The notes under the pieces were generated by a model that ran no database searches, was not told the DNA's origin, and worked only from the letters and a program-made list of their open reading frames with translations. A DNA stretch of 64,000 bases from Eledone cirrhosa (Eukaryota). Shown here one piece after another: positions 8,628-57,090 of this stretch; the first letter of the stretch is position 1; each line of letters starts with the position of its first letter. Made by a program: the position numbers and the translations under genes. Where the stretch lies: the NCBI GenBank assembly GCA_964016885.1, contig OZ024746.1, forward strand, positions 67,146,001 through 67,210,000, written 5' to 3'.

Positions 8628-9577
8628 GGGGATTCCTTTCTTTGTTTCTGTGCCTTTCCTTTCTTCTATCCTACGCCATTTTGTTTCTGTGTGTGTGTTG
8701 TGTGTTCAGTTTGCGCATGCGCCACATCCGGGTGTCTGTGTGTGTTTGTGTTCATTTATCTATTTGTTTATTTATTTATTGTTGGTTGGTTGTTTGTTCT
8801 ATGTGTGTGTGTGTTTTCATTTTGTCCTGTGTGTGTTTTCATGTTGTCCTTAATTGTAAGTTGTTTGTTCTATGTGTGTGTGTGTTTTCATTTTGTCCTG
8901 TGTGTGTTTTCATTTTGTCCTTAATTGTAAGTTGTGATGTTGCTGTTCCACTCATATTTTCTATTTAATTTTGGTGGTAATTCTTTTATGCTTACTGCCT
9001 CTGTAATTTGCCTAAACATTGCATCTTTTCTGTGTGTGGATTCTATTTTTATTTCTATGTTCTCTAATCTACCCCTGTGTTCTATCTTAGCATGTTGGTA
9101 GAGCACAGATGATTCTTTATTATCTTGAAGGTCTCGCCAGTGTTCATTTATTCGTTCCCCTATATTACGAGCTGTCTCACCTATGTACACTATATTTTTG
9201 TTTCTACATTGTCCTTCAGTACATCTTATGCTATACACTACATTTCTAGTTTTACAGTTAATATGGGGGCTTATTTTACAGGTTATACATTTCTTATCTA
9301 TACATGAGGGTCTTTGGAACGGGTATATCTTGCTATGAAACGGTATGTCTTGCTAATGAACGGGTATGTCTTGCTAATGAAAACACACACACACATAGAA
9401 CAAACAACCAACCAACAATAAATAAATAAATAAATAAACAAATAGATAAATGAACACAAACACACACAGACACCCGGATGTGGCGCATGCGCAAACTGAA
9501 CACACAACACACACACGGAAACAAAATGGCGTAGGATAGAAGAAAGGAAAGGTACAGAAACAAAGAAAGGAATCCCC

Positions 9578-46973: not shown

Positions 46974-48698
46974 CATACATGTAAAGTTATATTTAAAATT
47001 GTTGGGTTACAACTAGTAAATATTTATAACTGATATAAAAGCACTCGACAAATATTTGGAGTATATTTACAATATTAAATAAATGGAAAACTATATTTAT
47101 AAAACCATATTTATTTCATTATATATATTTCGGGGATATCATATTAACAATATGCTATGCCTTCATCAGACAAAATACAATATAAACAGTTTTATAGATA
47201 AATAGATTCGTCATACCGTAATAACACCGACTTCATTTGAAGAGGTTTACGCTGGCAGTGAAAAAATTTTATACAGAGAGAAAGAAAGAGAGAAAAAAGA
47301 AAGAAAGACAAAACGAAGAAAAGGAAGAAAAAGAAGAAAAAGACAAAGAAGAAATGCATGGAACAAAATAGAGAGATGGAAAGATAGATAAAGCGAAGAA
47401 CTTCATGTAAAGAAACAGAAAGAGACATATATATATAGAGAGAGAGGAAATAGAGATAGATACATATATATATAGAAAATTAGGTAGTGGGAGGTCATTT
47501 TGAGTAAATGTATCAATGATACATTTATTTATTTATTTATTTAGCTCAGATAATGTAAGGGAGATATATAGAGAGAAGAAAATATAGAGAGAGGAAAAAA
47601 TAGCGAGAGAAAAAAATTTAAAAATAGCCAGACATATTCGAGGCGCAAAAACCCTATGTTTTAATGTATTAGTATTTATAAAACTTACACTATATTGTAA
47701 ATATCAGTATTCCTGAATGAGACACGTATCCATAATGTGTGAAAATTAATTATCTTATGTTTAGTTTTAAAAAATTCATATGTTTATGTGACAGCTACAA
47801 ACATCCATGCGAATCCAAATGATTCACTCTGCAAACTCTAAGTTCACGGAAAACATTCTCAATGTGGTATAAAAATTTGAGCGTATTATTATTCCTGTCA
47901 TTACTCTACAAGATTATCTATCAAGCAGAAATAGAGAGCAGATTTCAATATACTAATAAAAATATATATTATAAACAAAACTAAAAATAAAAAGATAACA
48001 ATAATAATAATAAGTAAAAATATAGAATAGAAAATTTAAAAAAATATTACGAAAGAATATTACATAATAAAAATATTACATATTAAAAATACTACGTATT
48101 AAAAAATATTACGTATTAAAAATTTACATATTAAAGATATAAAATAAAAAAAAAAAAATAAAAAAAAAAAAATAAAAAATAAAAATATTATAGAATACTA
48201 CAATAATAAAAAAATTAAAAAAAAAAAAAAAAAATTAAAAATAAAAATAAAAATAAAAATAAAAATAAAAATAAAAATAAAAATAAAAATAAAAATAAAA
48301 ATAAAAATAAAAATAAAAATAAATAAAAATAAAAATAAACCACAAAGAACAACCCTTCAAAGTTAATTGACAATATATTGCCAAGTTCATTACAAGACAA
48401 AGCCAAAAATTATCTATCAAATCACATCTAGCAAAGATCATTTCAAAAAGATTATGATGTCCAATTAGGTCTATATATGTTCTTATATTTAATATAGAAG
48501 TTTATCTAGTGTAAGGTTAATTCAAAAAAAATTTGGAGCATCAGCTTTTAGGGTAGTTTAATTTTTCATGAGGAATGTTTAGATAAAAATAAAATAAAAA
48601 TAAACAATAAAAAAGAGTAAAAAGAGGGAATCAAAGATTTAGGAATCAAAAAATTTATCGGATAGTTTCCCATATAAATATAAATCAAACTAAATATA

Positions 48699-49800
48699 CT
48701 ACATTTTAAATTTAAATTTATATTTAAACGTTGAGTTTAATCTATGTTTGCAACAACTGAATAAATTTGTCCGTAGGTTAAGGGAATTTTTAGATTTTAG
48801 TATAAAGAATATCTCCTCTGCGCAGAGGTCACATGTCTCAGAGGATGAATTAAAAGGAATCCCTCTTGAGACTATATTCCAAGCCGTCGAATATCTAACG
48901 TTATCTAGCTTAAGTTGCCAGAGTACGCCTGATAGTGCCGTTGAAGATTTTTTACTTGGATCTGTGAAAGAATTCTTGTGGTTATTATAGCGAATTTTAA
49001 ATTCCGTCGATGTGGAACCGACGTAGTTAAAAGAATTAGAGTCAGTATTAACATTACAATTGTATACTATATTTTTAACTAAGCAGTTGTTATTTAACGG
49101 ACATTTAGATCTATCTCTACAGTTACATTTGTTAACTTGTATATTATTTATGCTATTATCAGTAGGTTTTAAGTTCCTATTATTTATTCTATTAATATTT
49201 TGTGCTAAATTTTTGGTGGATGAGTAGGTTAATTTAATTGTATGCCTATTGAAAATTGAGTGATACCTATGTGTTCTAGGGAAGCGATTAACAAGAGCTT
49301 TGAAAAATAGTTTAGCGATGTGGGTTTTAATGTTTAGTGAGAAAGGGGGGGCAAACCAAATTATGTTCCTAGTTCTATTTCTTTTTTGGCCTTTGGAATT
49401 ATTGTAATGCTTTCTATTATAGTTGTTAAGGTTGTTGCCGTAATTAAAAAAGTTGTTACTTTGTTTAGTTTGTCTATCATTATCTATGTACACAATCTTA
49501 TCAGCATATCCTGCTCTAGCTAATGCTTCATTATAGTATTGCGCTTTTTCGTCGAAAATCTTTCTATTCGACGAGATCCTAGAGATACGCTTTTGAACAG
49601 AGTTTACTATAGTGTTTTTGACAGATGTGGGGTGGTTAGAGTTAAAGTTGACATAGTTTAAGTTTTCATTCAACTTGTGCAAAGGATAGTGAAGACATGT
49701 GTTGAGATTTAATGTTATATCTAGGAAATTGACTATTCTATGGTTGTTCTCAATTTCTATTTTAAGATTAAAGTAATTAAAAATTATATATATTCCAATT
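48699..49800 (-). pseudogene. PLE ORF fragment: end of RT (VNFLDITL), thumb, CxCx5C linker and GIY-YIG
   Basis: Frame is open upstream of the listed ORF (LKIEIENNHRIVNFLDITLNL). Motifs SNHP, IWFAPPFS, IFNRHTIKLTYS, CNCRDRSKCPL, IVYNC..YVGST..FKIRYNNHKNSF, CDLCAEE, LNLR..CCKH. Confidence 0.9.
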
Positions 49801-51010
49801 TTTTTATTTTTTATTTTTTTATTATTGTAGTATTCTATATTTTTATTTTTTATTTTTTATTTTTTATTTTTTATTTTTTATTTTTTATTTTTTATTTTTT
49901 ATTTTTTATTTTTTATTTTTTATTTTTTATTTTTTATTTTTTATTTTTTATTTTTTATTTTTTATTTTTTATTTTTTATTTTTTATTTTTTATTTTTTAT
50001 TTTTTATTTTTTTATTTTTTATTTTTTATTTTATTTTTAATATCTTTAATATGTAAATTTTTAATACGTAATATTTTTTAATACGTAGTATTTTTAATAT
50101 GTAATATTTTTATTATGTAATATTCTTTCGTAATATTTTTTTAGTTTTCTATTCTATATTTTTACTTATTATTATTATTGTTATCTTTTTATTTTTAGTT
50201 TTGTTTATAATATATATTTTTATTAGTATATTGAAATCTGCTCTCTATTTCTGCTTGATAGATAATCTTGTAGAGTAATGACAGGAATAATAATACGCTC
50301 AAATTTTTATACCACATTAGGAATGTTTTCCGTGAACTTAGAGTTTGCAGAGTGAATCAGTTGGATTCGCATGGATGTTTGTAGCTGTCACATAAACATA
50401 TGAATTTTTTAAAACTAAACATAAGATAATTAATTTTCACACATTATGGATACTTGTCTCATTCAGGAATACTGATATTTACAATATAGTGTAAGTTTTA
50501 TAAATACTAATACATTAAAACATAGGGTTTTTGCGCCTCGAATATGTCTGGCTATTTTTAAATTTTTTTCTCTCGCTATTTTTTCCTCTCTCTATATTTT
50601 CTTCTCTCTATATATCTCCCTTACATTAATACCTGAGCTAAATAAATAAATAAATAAATAAATGTATCATTGATACATTTACTCAAAATGACCTCCCACT
50701 ACCTAATTTTCTATATATATATGTATCTATCTCTATTTCCTCTCTCTCTATATATATATGTCTCTTTCTGTTTCGTTACATGAAGTTCTTCGCTTTATCT
50801 ATCTTTCCATCTCTCTATTTTGTTCCATGCATTTCTTCTTTGTCTTTTTCTTCTTTTTCTTCCTTTTCTTCGTTTTGTCTTTCTTTCTTTTTTCTCTCTT
50901 TCTTTCTCTCTGTATAAAATTTTTTCACTGCCAGCGTAAACCTCTTCAAATGAAGTCGGTGTTATTACGGTATGTCGAATCTATTTATCTATAAAACTGT
51001 TTATATTGTA

Positions 51011-51072
51011 TTTTGTCTGATGAAGGCATAGCATATTGTTAATATGATATCCCCGAAATATATATAATGAAA
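51011..51072 (+). ncRNA. Type I hammerhead ribozyme (family B 3' end; mirror copy at ~47114-47175 on -)
   Basis: TTTTGT CTGATGA agg..CATATT-gtt-AATATG..cccc GAAA TATATA TA ATGAAA. Confidence 0.7.
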
Positions 51073-51127
51073 TAAATATGGTTTTATAAATATAGTTTTC
51101 CATTTATTTAATATTGTATATATATAC

Positions 51128-51250
<123 letters not shown>

Positions 51251-51366
51251 TATATGTATGTATATATGCATATCTATATGTATGTATGTAGATCTATATA
51301 GATGTGTGTGTCTGTGTGTCTTTGTATGTGTTTCGATATATAGATATATTTATATGAATAGAAGTT

Positions 51367-51410
<44 letters not shown>

Positions 51411-51417
<7 letters not shown>

Positions 51418-52614
51418 TTGGAATAAATGCTCTGAAATAGCGATATATATGTGAAGATAGACATAGAATATTCTATAAGTCTCTAGCTGTGTCATTCTCG
51501 ATAAAAGCACTGGATATGTAATCCTGAAGATTTCTAATAAGAATGAAACGCGTAGGTTACTTCCCTTGCTTTTATCGAGAATCTAATTGTAATACGTGAC
51601 GTATTCTATTCTATAGCGATTAGGTCTTCAAAATGTTTATTATAAACATACAGAATATTCTCGAATATTCTATGTCTATCTTCACATATATATCGCTATT
51701 TCAGAGCATTTATTCCAATTTCTAATTTCTGCCGGACCGGCAACCGCTCTTTCAAACCAGTTCCTGTACACAGCTAAGTATTCTATAAGTCTCTGGCTGT
51801 GTCATTCTCGATAAAAGCACTGGATATGTAATCCTGAAGATTTCTAATAAGAATGAAACGCGTAGGTTACTTCCCTTGCTTTTATCGAGAATCTAATTGT
51901 AATACGTGACGTATTCTAGTCTATAGTGATTAGGTCTTCAAAATGTTTATTATAAACATACAGAATATTTTCGAATATTCTATGTCTATCTTCACATATA
52001 TATCGCTATTTCAGAGCATTTATTCCAATTTCTAATTTCTGCCGGACCGGCAACCGCTCTTTCAAACCAGTTCCTGTACACAGCTAAGTATTCTATAAGT
52101 CTCTAGCTGTGTCATTCTCGATAAAAGCACTGGATATGTAATCCTGAAGATTTCTAATAAGAATGAAACGCGTAGGTTACTTCCCTTGCTTTTATCGAGA
52201 ATCTAATTGTAATACGTGACGTATTCTATTCTATAGCGATTAGGTCTTCAAAATGTTTATTATAAACATACAGAATATTCTCGAATATTCTATGTCTATC
52301 TTCACATATATATCGCTATTTCAGAGCATTTATTCCAATTTCTAATTTCTGCCGGACCGGCAACCGCTCTTTCAAACCAGTTCCTGTACACAGCTAAGTA
52401 TTCTATAAGTCTCTAGCTGTGTCATTCTCGATAAAAGCACTGGATATGTAATCCTGAAGATTTCTAATAAGAATGAAACGCGTAGGTTACTTCCCTTGCT
52501 TTTATCGAGAATCTAATTGTAATACGTGACGTATTCTATTCTATAGCGATTAGGTCTTCAAAATGTTTATTATAAACATACAGAATATTTTCGAATATTC
52601 TATGTCTATCTTCA
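51411..52614 (+). mobile_element. Non-LTR retrozyme-like tandem array: ~3.7 x 310-bp units, four hammerheads, 5' inverted segment
   Basis: CTGAAGA at 51524, 51834, 52144 and 52454 (period 310). Units differ by only a few substitutions. 51411-51473 is an inverted piece of the unit. No ORF; (TA)n on both sides. Confidence 0.88.
51518..51560 (+). ncRNA. Minimal type I hammerhead ribozyme (repeated at 51828-51870, 52138-52180, 52448-52490)
   Basis: GTAATC CTGAAGA tTTCT-aata-AGAAt GAAA CGCG TA GGTTAC. Palindromic stem III ACGCGT; predicted cleavage after GUA (51554). Confidence 0.9.
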
Positions 52615-52619
52615 TATAT

Positions 52620-54050
52620 ATATATATATTTATTAAAATAACAGATTAAAGTTTAAGCAAAGAATCGCTGCTTTCACCCTTAACGGGATCTTCTGAAACT
52701 AACAAAGTCAATCTGTAAACGCAGAACTGTATATTTCAAAAAACTTTGCAACCGGAGTTCGGCTTGTAAACATAAATTGCACAAAACTTTCCTGTATTAC
52801 AGCCCCACATTATACCCTAACGGATAGTACGATCTATACGTGGAAATTTTACGTCTCGATGTGGGAGCTAAGTATATGTTTTGTTTATACCTTTACTTAT
52901 TTGCATAGGTAAGTATATGTTATCCGTATGTTTTGTGAAGCTACTTATACCTTCTCGTACGTATATTTGATTGTTATGGCGTATAATTTTTTTTTATATA
53001 TTCTGGTACATATGGTTCGACTATGTGTATACGGGAGTTTTGCGTCTGTGTGAGTATGCAGGTTCGTACGTATGTAGGGCGTGTGTATATGTGTACTTCA
53101 TGTTTTGGTTGACTTACGTCTCCGAACATTCGTGTATTTACATGTAGGTATGAGTGTGCGCTTGTTATATACGTATTTATTTATTTATATACGTTTATAT
53201 AATTATTTATTTATTTGTATACACGCTTACACACACACATATTTATATGTGCGTGGTTTTGTTTACCTATGGTAAGTTTTTGCGTATGCTTGTGTATGTA
53301 AGTTTCTGTTTGCGTGTATGTTTTTATTTATTTCTATTACTTCTGTATTGTATTTATTTACTTTGTTCTTAACTCCGTAGCGGAAATTCATTCGGTCTCC
53401 TAGTTAGAATTTAGTCTACGACTTCTGCTATACCATTTACGTGGTTTTGTCTTTGCGTGCTATTGTTCTCAACGCTCCACATATGACGTATTATCTTCGT
53501 TTTTTTCGTTCATCGCCATAGAACGTCTCTATGCACCACCCAAGAGAACATTAGTCTACGAACTCTATTATACTATAAACGTGGTTCTGTCTTTGCGCGT
53601 ATTGTTTTTCACCGCTCCTATTAATGACGTATTATATTCGTTTTTTGCGTGTATGGTTAACTTTGCCTTTCATCCTTAGGGGGTCGATAAAATAAAGTGC
53701 CAGTAATACACTGGGATAATTGCTGGCCTTGTGCCAAAAGTAGAAACAATTATATTCGTTTTTTCCCGTTCTTAACCAGCGAACGTTTCCACGAACCAAA
53801 GTATCGTCTTCCTGTCTTCCTCCGGTTGCAACGTTTTTTGAAATATCCAGTTCTGCGTTTACAGATTGACTTTGTTAGTTTCAGAAGATCCCGTTATGGG
53901 TGAAAGCAGCGATTCTTTGCTTAAACTTTAATCTGTTATTTTAATAAATATTTGCTCTACGGTTCTCATATATTTGATATATATTTATCCTTATCGAACC
54001 CTCTTTGGATTTTAGTCTTCAAATTTATTATTATTACTATTATTATTAAT
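52620..54050 (+). mobile_element. PLE family C 3' region with inverted pLTR
   Basis: 52620-52757 is an inverted copy of 53820-53947. From 52759 the sequence matches the end of the family C ORF (SACKHKLHK) and its 3' UTR. A SINE S1 fragment is inserted at 53655-53752. Confidence 0.85.
53877..53927 (+). ncRNA. Type I hammerhead-like motif with U4>A core
   Basis: AGTTT CAGAAGA tCCC-gttat-GGGt GAAA GCA-gcgattctt-TGC TT AAACT. Same core in the copies at ~30131-30180 and ~52650-52700 (-). Confidence 0.6.
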
Positions 54051-54056
54051 ATATAT

Positions 54057-54400
54057 GTGGAGGCACGTGGCTTAGTGGTTAGAGCATTGGCTTTGCAATC
54101 GAAAGGTTGTGAGTTCAATTCTCAGACCGGGTGATATGTTGTTTCCTTGAGCAAGACACTTTATTTCACATTGCTCCAGTTTACTCAGCTGTAGAAATGA
54201 GATGATAGGGACTGGGGTCCATATCATACCACTGCAAAGTTGTCGTGGAGGTGCCACGGCAAAAAAGCACCCAGCAATCACTGTAAATGAGGTTGGTGTT
54301 AGGAAGGGCATCCAGCTGTAGAAATCAAGCCAGCATCAGTTCCCGTCCCACCCTTGCAAGCAGGGAAAAAGCGGACGTAAAATGAAATGATGATGATGAT
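54057..54400 (+). mobile_element. tRNA-derived SINE with RTE-like tail
   Basis: GGCACGTGGCTTAGTGGTTAGAGC, GAGTTCAATTC, CCTTGAGCAAGACACTT, GTTGGTGTTAGGAAGGGCATCCAGC; ends in (GAT)n. Confidence 0.8.
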
Positions 54401-55329: not shown

Positions 55330-57087
55330 CTGAGCATAGAGTGGTTCATAGAGACGGTTCATAGAGTGGTTCATAGAGTGGTTCATAGAGACGTTCTCTG
55401 GCAATAAACGGAAAAAACGAAGATAATACGTCATATGTGGGGCGTGGAGAACAATTGAACGCAAAGATAAAACCACGTAAATGGTATAACTGAAGTCGTA
55501 GACTAAAATTCTAACTAGGAAACCGAATGATTCTCGGCTTCAGAGTTAAGAATAAAGTAAATAAAATACAGAGGTAATTGAAATTAAATAAATACATACA
55601 CGCATCCATATACGTACATACAGAGGCATACGCGAAAACACTCACCATAGGTATACAAATACACGCATTTATATATATGTGTGTGTGTACGTGTATACAA
55701 ATAATTAAATAAACGTATATGAATAAATAAATATAGCGGCGAAGAATTAGTTTTGCGAGGTGTTTTATATGAAATCGTGTGTCGAAACAAATATTGTTAT
55801 ACTTGGGGAGGGTCATATTTGTGTAATATTGCCAGAATTAATAACAGAACACACTCACTGTTTGGTTGGTTTTCGCTTAAATAAATAAATAAATACCTAT
55901 ATAACAAGTGCACACACATACCTACATGTAAAGACACATATGTTCGGAGACAACGTCAACCAAAACACGAAGTACACATATACACACACCCTACATACGT
56001 ACGAACCCGCATACTCACACAGACGCAAAACTCACGTATACACATAACCAAAAGCATATGTACCAGAATATATAAAACTATACGCCATAACATATACAAT
56101 CAAATATACGTACGAGAATGTATACGTACCTTCACAAAACATACAGGTAATATATACTTACCTATACAAATAAGTAATGGTATAAACATAACATATACTT
56201 AGCTACCACATCAAGGCGTAAAATATCCGTGTATAGATCGTAATAGGCGTTAGGGTATAATGTGGTGCTGTAATACAGGAAAGCTTTGTGCAATTTATGT
56301 TTACAAGCCGAAATTGCCTCAGATTTTTTGTTTAAGATGTGGTCTTTGGCGTAGAGTATTTCCAGGGCTTCAGCGGCGCAGATGTCACATGGTCTTTTAT
56401 TTCCGTTATACGATCTATCCCTAGCTAGGATCTCCCAGTGTAACTTATATTGGGTGTGGTTGTCTTTTAGACTCCAGATATAAGCTGAAAGTGACGTCAT
56501 ATTCCTTCTTAGAGGGTAACGAAAAGAATGGGTATGCATGAAAGACGTTGATTGAATCTATTGGCGGTTAACCCTATGTAGGTCCTACGGGATGTGGGTG
56601 TTTCAACTTTACATTTGTAGACAATGTTACTAGAGAGGCATTTCTCGGATAGGGGGCAGTCAACCCGATTCCTACAATTACAGTTAGTACTAACTACAGG
56701 GTTGCACGTGTTTCTACGGCTAGGTGGTTTAGCTAAATTTGAAGCTGTGATGTTATGTGCAAGGTTAGGAGTCGTAGAGTAAGAAATTTTAATAGTATTT
56801 CTATTAAAAATGTTACTATCTTTATGTGTAGGGGGGAAAGATCTTGGCTAATGGCGTGGCCACCTCCATATTATATGGTGGGTTATACCATATAATGCGT
56901 CGGGATCTATTTCTTCTAGGTCTATTCTCGAACTCTGTATATGCAACGTTATCGACAAATCCACTCCGAGCAAGAGCATCATTGTAATATGTGGAATGGT
57001 CGTTGAAAATATGCTCGTTAGTAGATAGATGGGAAAGCCTCAAAGAAACGTTTCTTACCAGGTTCTTGGTTATGTTGACAGGATGGT

Positions 57088-57090
<3 letters not shown>
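55330..57090 (-). mobile_element. Penelope-like element family C (probably Hydra clade), 5'-truncated and frameshifted
   Basis: 56162-57090 encodes NHP, IIWYNPPY, IFNRNTIKISYS, CNCRNRVDCP, IVYKC..YIGLT, SLSAYIWSLK, CDICAAE, LNKKSE..CKH. The 3' UTR is homologous to 52760-53650. A family A tail is nested at 55735-55878. Confidence 0.88.

Follow-up and report, generated by a model that had tools for sequence, protein, structure and literature searches.

An ORF-free hammerhead repeat family of Eledone cirrhosa inserts mostly as two head-to-head arms and carries a PLE integration signature

The 310-bp hammerhead repeat found in the window (the whole stretch of 64,000 nucleotides that was analysed) is one insertion of a family, here called family A, which carries the integration signature of Penelope-like elements (PLEs), with an end rule that it has in common with the neighbouring PLE family P1. 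By the criteria of its sequence, that is short, low-GC, dispersed tandem units with a type I hammerhead in each and no ORF, the family would be classed as a metazoan non-LTR retrozyme. It is probable that a PLE enzyme acting in trans integrated this ORF-free repeat by cutting (TA)n on both strands and priming two cDNAs on one RNA, at two sites designated A and B.

The array in the window

The original prediction of an ORF-free array of 3.7 units of 310 bp set in (TA)n was confirmed (Table 1). The tandem array has a period of 310 bp with 98% matches over its 3.7 copies, and its unit is of 35% GC. No ORF of at least 100 aa was found within the forward arm, and the RT plus GIY-YIG ORF by which an autonomous PLE is recognised is absent from the 310-bp element. 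The units, which had been called nearly identical, are so at the level of 98% matches, with the reservation that C and T alternate at unit position 192 (positions q1 to q310 being numbered from 51469) and that unit 2 has three further differences. The inverted piece with a palindromic junction was also present as described, although it extends over 64 bp and the palindrome is the product of the 5-nt microhomology; this piece is the second (B) arm of the one insertion. The 16-nt block downstream of site B is a putative protein-binding signal.

Table 1. Features of the insertion and its surroundings (window coordinates)
Feature	Position	Strand	Remarks
Two-armed autonomous-type PLE copy, family P1	46978..51116	.	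ORF piece 48699-49856 (-); one long, one short end; for comparison only, outside the element
(TA)n target, left side	51117..51409	.
Short inverted arm, unit positions 258 to 195	51410..51473	-	BLAST of unit; outer end = site B, facing (TA)n
5-nt microhomology at head-to-head junction of both arms	51469..51473	.	BLAST overlap -5
Forward arm, 3.7 units of 310 bp (starts 51469, 51779, 52089, 52399)	51469..52614	+	outer end = site A (unit position 216)
16-bp helix extending stem I	51494-51509 with 51567-51582 (span 51494..51582)	+	predicted fold
Type I hammerheads, four	51518-51560, 51828-51870, 52138-52180, 52448-52490	+	predicted cleavage after GUA at 51554, 51864, 52174, 52484
7-bp hairpin with tetraloop, immediately upstream of site A	51653..51670	+
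Tail running from site A (in the internal TA run, unit 216-225) to site B (251, 256 or 258 in most cases)	51685..51726	+
16-nt block downstream of site B, same sequence in family B	51735..51750	+	alignment
(TA)n target, right side	52615..52629	.

Other repeats were noted in the window. A further (TA)n-flanked family starts right of the array (52630 onward) and was also seen at L054:4997-5358, where it is two-armed, and in L072. Two identical hammerhead-like motifs in inverted orientation, at 8630 (-) and 9575 (+), have a canonical G-C helix II and likely belong to another two-armed element, and a tRNA-like match at 54066-54129, barely over the Rfam gathering score, is possibly the head of a SINE.

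Hammerhead and predicted RNA fold

In each hammerhead, stem I pairs q50-55 with q87-92, the core is formed by CUGAAGA and GAAA, and the cleavage triplet GUA lies at q84-86. Helices I, II and III are of 6, 4 and 2 bp respectively, the last with a palindromic loop; the 6-nt palindrome of stem III (51548-51553) gives a predicted duplex of -9.5 kcal/mol, and a 2-bp palindromic stem III of this kind would be compatible with action as a dimer. The hammerhead descriptor found 2 matches in 3.1 Mb of a Markov control of the unit's composition, or about 0.0002 per unit. The unit has no match in Rfam at gathering score; HH9 aligns on the hammerhead core with E 0.13 (17 bits versus 52). Helix II begins with U.U in place of the usual G10.1-C11.1 pair, which may slow cleavage. 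According to the definition in PMC4209133, the minimal hammerhead (min-HHR) of PLE pLTRs is without helix III and has the G10.1-C11.1 pair. The type I hammerhead announced for every unit is there, but by this definition it is of the usual metazoan form with helix III present, and the min-HHR class is ruled out by the 2-bp helix III and the U.U at 10.1-11.1.

The monomer fold, compared with shuffles, has a z-score of -4.6. The 16-bp helix prolonging stem I appears in the predicted fold as had been proposed, and the GAATATTC-tc-GAATATTC hairpin is better taken as a 7-bp stem with a 4-nt loop, this tetraloop being UUCG in 102 of 103 insertions and CUCG in window units 1 and 3. Ten inherited changes fall within q50-92 (at 52, 53, 60, 63, 68, 70, 71 twice, 88 and 91), all of them in N7, in loop II or pair-keeping, so that both the core and stem III are free of them (about 0.01, estimated by hand). 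The ribozyme core thus appears to be under selection, since inherited variants spare it and families B and C, described below, keep the fold with other sequence.

Dispersal and sampled insertions

Exact hammerhead cores number 8,826 genome-wide (0 in the control), and exact patterns of the array ends were counted 1,430 times at site A and 870 times at site B, the latter on the forward strand only since the reverse count is inflated by a variable gap. The family copy number is put at about 1,400 or more near-identical insertions (about 1,500 loci). BLAST of the unit gave 223 matches in the 40 candidates that were scored out of 272, with 95-100% identity among the 150 matches listed. A young, dispersed, ORF-free hammerhead family is thus borne out; the unit does not occur only in this window, and a local duplication as origin of the window array is excluded by the genome-wide cores and array ends.

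The sample comprised 143 insertions from 139 stretches, selected in five ways: the best BLAST matches of three queries (67 stretches), the first 13 core loci along the genome and, to complete it, those not yet included among the first 70 of the 1,430 A ends, again in genome order. One piece shorter than 60 bp was dropped, leaving 142 insertions in the counts, in which a probable duplicate in L212 is counted twice.

Two arms with two fixed ends

Two arms, placed head to head, were seen in 117 of the 142 insertions and one arm in the other 25. Where two arms were present and both ends could be seen, 112 of 114 insertions paired an end at site A with an end at site B, and none was A/A; the exceptions are L031, a compound B/B insertion, and L047 (A/other). 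Outside the group picked by A ends the A/B class made up 64 of 66 (p 3e-17), and in the genome-order subset 10 of 10. Site A fell at q209-234 by BLAST, its true position being q216-225, within an internal TA run able to pair with the target. Site B spans unit positions 245-260 (251 in 73 insertions, 256 in 21, 258 in 12, others in 6), lies 35-42 nt downstream of site A and can pair with the target over 1-2 nt only. TA runs are faced by 225 of 259 outer ends. Instead of the permuted array ends that had been expected, the arrays therefore end at two fixed sites. The expected PLE-type integration into (TA)n received strong structural evidence, in that an inverted arm, a tail at one end and an AT-rich or microsatellite target, by which PLE mobilisation is recognised, were all found at the frequencies just given.

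The inner ends are of a different nature. Among 118 joints, 72 overlap by 1-10 nt, 8 by more, 8 are blunt and 30 show a gap, many of these gaps being unit pieces below BLAST length, and no enrichment of inner ends was seen at the cleavage site (2/236). Arms from site A have a median length of 944 versus 870 for those from site B, with maxima of 7,240 and 8,459 respectively.

Two related families were recognised. Family B (320 bp, 1,648 candidates) is 75-78% alike over q145-298; its hammerhead has U3-A8 instead of C3-G8, and its palindromic stem III is longer. At the place of the stem I extension there is a helix with a different sequence, and a covarying stem with a GCAA tetraloop precedes site A. 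At least three of its loci are also A/B, and one of its arrays, at L095:1110-9901 (G000:C14:23.50 Mb), has at least 27 units. Family C is a dispersed two-armed non-coding element with 767 candidates (L095:251-762; L127-L140), whose hammerhead shares with family A the U.U pair, the AAUA loop and a palindromic stem III of 6 nt, in other sequence.

One RNA behind both arms

Both arms of an insertion come from one RNA lineage. In 112 of 117 insertions the six subfamily sites are concordant between them, and in the five discordant ones the difference lies in one unit, at the joint edge or in a mixed centre. In L042, L245 and L258 both arms hold the same rare unit at equal distance from the start unit, and its distances to the two outer ends differ by the exact A-B offset (26 or 33 by BLAST ends); consequently, both cDNAs started on the same unit of one multimer, and these insertions were read from multimers. 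Haplotypes also switch within insertions, after two units of both arms in L258 and around the joint only in L115.

ADAR performs A-to-I editing of RNA. Among variants carried by a whole insertion and read on the ribozyme strand, A>G occurs at 12 sites versus T>C at 3 (p 0.007, a test on 15 sites in total), compared with 21 and 34 respectively among single-unit differences (Fisher p 0.007 between the two sets). The whole-insertion A>G variants lie mostly in predicted stems, and 106G is found on three backgrounds. This bias would be consistent with A-to-I editing of the ribozyme strand before copying and may be taken as an indirect sign of an RNA stage on that strand; for this element it would argue against the antisense template proposed in PMC3846280. 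A 340-nt cyclic contig (310+30) obtained from each of runs X4-X6 was rejected as a candidate RNA circle: a tandem array gives the same contig, and these runs also contain pieces resembling P1, with a depth ratio close to that of X1, so that they are not taken as evidence of RNA.

Proposed mechanism and nature of the template

In the mechanism that we propose, hammerhead arrays would be transcribed, the hammerheads would cleave as dimers and a host ligase would circularise the 310-nt monomers. A PLE protein would bind near the conserved block 3' of site B and cut (TA)n on both strands, after which one RNA, possibly a self-cleaved and ligated circle, would be primed at site A and 35-42 nt downstream at site B. 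Both cDNAs would continue past the cleavage site, over as many as 27 units, and their 3' ends would anneal at a few bases before being filled in. The PAc PLE protein, predicted to be dimeric, is reported in PMC11167929 to cut and extend both strands of AT-rich DNA in vitro and to start at two internal RNA sites bounding the tail. According to the same source uncleaved RNA is its main substrate and both start sites are used alike by both strands; this preference and this equal use count against the proposed model.

Judged from the patterns of variants, a monomer circle has somewhat better than an even chance of being the template. In 57 insertions a rarer variant is present in all units, mostly in both arms, which points to repeated monomer bottlenecks in the history of the family. 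No scar was found at the cleavage site (8/6,240 bases versus 451/322,534, or 0.14%, overall). A 2-bp deletion, the sole whole-array variant searched genome-wide, was found in 77 units of 9 insertions. Consequently, the argument that a private variant proves a circle was abandoned, since this variant is not private to one insertion, and whole-array variants mark a bottleneck once per lineage and not per insertion. A more elaborate form, in which a PLE dimer loads once on an ADAR-edited 310-nt circle, passes one end of the cut (TA)n to each of the two fixed start sites, and its two polymerases roll round that circle, displacing each other's cDNA until the strands anneal, is put forward tentatively, at rather less than even confidence.

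The alternative that deserves the most weight, although we consider it somewhat unlikely, is PLE twin priming on an uncleaved, linear multimer that arose by transcription of an earlier array, any circles being by-products. It accords with the multimers read in L042, L245 and L258, with the alternation at one site of the window array, with the lineage of 9 pure insertions that the 2-bp deletion defines and with the in vitro preference for uncleaved RNA (PMC11167929), and seamless unit joints are compatible with it too. However, another route would be needed to fix one variant in all units, as seen for about 30 variants, and arms reach 8.5 kb while each round can only shorten a linear template. 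In addition, 3 clear in-register variants were found, whereas about 62 would be expected if the multimer templates had varied as much as the sampled arrays; this expected figure is an upper bound, because the source arrays are the youngest and assembly error contributes to the single-unit differences.

Fold-back of one cDNA (self-priming), as PMC3846280 proposes for PLE inverted repeats, is an improbable source of the second arm. It would leave palindromic overlaps, such as those of 15-43 nt at some joints, and rare variants placed in mirror image on the two sides of the joint, as seen in L033, L035, L065, L099 and L115; it may make a minor contribution to repair there. It would not, however, yield a fixed and different outer end; moreover, the inner ends of the two arms show a uniform distribution of offsets (KS p 0.76, 81 joints), either arm may be the longer one (A in 58 of 112) and in-register variants track the outer ends.

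The neighbouring PLE and the search for a partner

P1, the family of the PLE copy left of the array, has 86,503 candidates in the genome, many with intact ORFs of 738-745 aa. The P1 piece of the window has no match in Pfam, and by its motifs we take it to be a PLE; its Atlas neighbours carry GIY-YIG and RVT_1 in part of their members, and named relatives of the protein are found in Argonauta at 36-41% identity. In P1 the hammerhead is followed by the short end, by the long end about 90 nt beyond it and then by the ATG, with a hammerhead-like motif near 51010-51070 of the window and its mirror near 47110-47170. Among two-armed P1 copies with both ends seen, 19 of 20 paired a short with a long end (17 recognised by pattern and two by reading), the remaining one, L096, being long/long with mirrored flanks; three more copies showed one end only. 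The original prediction that the array had been integrated by the same machinery as its neighbours would be compatible with the insertion pattern, which is shared with P1, but P1 and the 310-bp unit have no sequence in common and the P1 tail is of about 90 nt instead of 35-42. A broken ORF at 56273-57088 (-) of the window belongs to another PLE family, 30-45% identical to P1.

No autonomous PLE whose terminal repeat matches came to light in P1, in 764 kb of fetched loci searched with a profile of families A and B, or in family C. A variant of the conserved block gave 48 matches, of which the 25 that were read are all family B-like, and a partner was likewise not found among A ends without hammerhead match or in the older subfamily. 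A retrozyme arm is fused directly to PLE sequence at L192:1610-3964, L186:3420-4099 and L061:2740-4740; in L192 a P1-like short end lies opposite a retrozyme B end. These three loci were not retained as retrozyme-PLE chimeras made by template switch, as neighbouring or later insertions with target loss explain them equally.

The failure to find a partner is one point in favour of a satellite origin, by amplification of a solo PLE terminal repeat through unequal crossover (bioRxiv 10.64898/2026.07.22.740005) or as the tandem pLTR of an unseen autonomous element, absence in cis being established for 143 sampled of about 1,500 loci. The other is the repeated variant blocks in the long arms of J197 (period 7), L238, L065 and L055, which were reshuffled later by some local duplication. 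Against it, the unit is the terminal repeat of an ORF in 0 of the 143 insertions, so that it is not always attached to a PLE ORF as a pLTR, and the PLE ORF pieces lying within 700 bp at 8 sampled loci are separate copies. Every insertion also has its own joint, and homogenisation is slow, as single-unit differences are unshared in 233 cases and partly shared in 37. As the main cause a satellite process is thus largely refuted, and we regard it as very improbable. That the palindromes are fold-back chimeras of long-read assembly is scarcely credible: mirrored flanks occur at L062 and at L096 of P1, but the two arms are unequal in length, outer end and inner offset, and at the other loci shown the flanks are not alike.

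Discussion

Overall, the original reading is supported in part: a young, dispersed family of retrozyme type, targeted to (TA)n and probably integrated in the manner of PLEs, stands, whereas the ends are not permuted, and self-cleavage, the 310-nt circle and rolling-circle copying are predictions. The retrozyme is of an ordinary kind and its insertion anatomy is unusually informative. Retrozyme integration by PLE enzymes from circle templates has so far been a hypothesis; on this, and on the way in which PLEs form their inverted arm and one-sided tail, a large and very young family bears with a signature that can be counted, namely one A and one B end, arms from one RNA and A>G on the sense strand. 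If PLE enzymes do copy the circle by rolling, the genome would directly record rolling-circle retrotransposition of an animal circular RNA, and the tail and inverted arm of PLEs would be explained by one obligatory two-site mechanism. Predictions follow for the in vitro PLE system, regarding the pairing of start sites within one complex and the copying of circles, for which the 310-nt unit is a compact substrate.

In L1 twin priming two primers at one target break are extended on one RNA and the inverted arm is joined by microhomology, the second primer acting at variable internal sites so that the arms do not overlap. Here, on the other hand, both starts lie within 45 nt at fixed sites and the same sequence is copied twice.

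Metazoan non-LTR retrozymes are described as short tandem units of 150-450 bp, and those known share with the present family ORF-free units of about 300 bp with a single type I hammerhead in each, low GC, thousands of dispersed copies and the presence of PLEs in the genome; a short palindromic helix III is shared with the salamander retrozymes. Cervera and de la Pena 2020 (PMC7229834) showed circles in coral, mussel and axolotl and proposed PLE or LINE enzymes, and Li et al. 2026 (bioRxiv 10.64898/2026.07.22.740005) linked retrozymes to pLTRs by homology, leaving the mechanism to be elucidated. PLE mobilisation and circle templates are hypotheses in these accounts; circles were shown there, whereas here the circle is a proposed template. 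The arrays that both sources describe are head-to-tail, while here two arms have fixed complementary ends. The pLTR homology reported for Xenopus retrozymes has no counterpart between the 310-bp unit and P1 or the fetched loci. In the accessible part of PMC13282606, on octopus repeats, neither ribozymes nor retrozymes are mentioned, and our literature search found neither two-armed retrozyme insertions nor strict end pairing, although the tail rule may already be given by Evgen'ev and Arkhipova 2005 and by Arkhipova 2006.

Among PLE derivatives, those of Chlamys such as MRC1 (PMC8557442) are likewise non-autonomous, multicopy and head-to-tail; in the account given there, MRC1-type elements are without canonical hammerheads and have 3' sequence in common with known autonomous families. 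The EN+ PLEs are reported to carry an inverted 5' copy and a tail of 30-40 bp, often at one end only (PMC8557442, PMC3846280). With them the present family has in common the head-to-head arm, the one-end tail, the AT-rich or (TA)n target and two internal starts downstream of the hammerhead; unlike them it has no ORF, and both its arms are long tandem arrays. The tail at one end, a feature of PLEs, is thereby now seen on a retrozyme.
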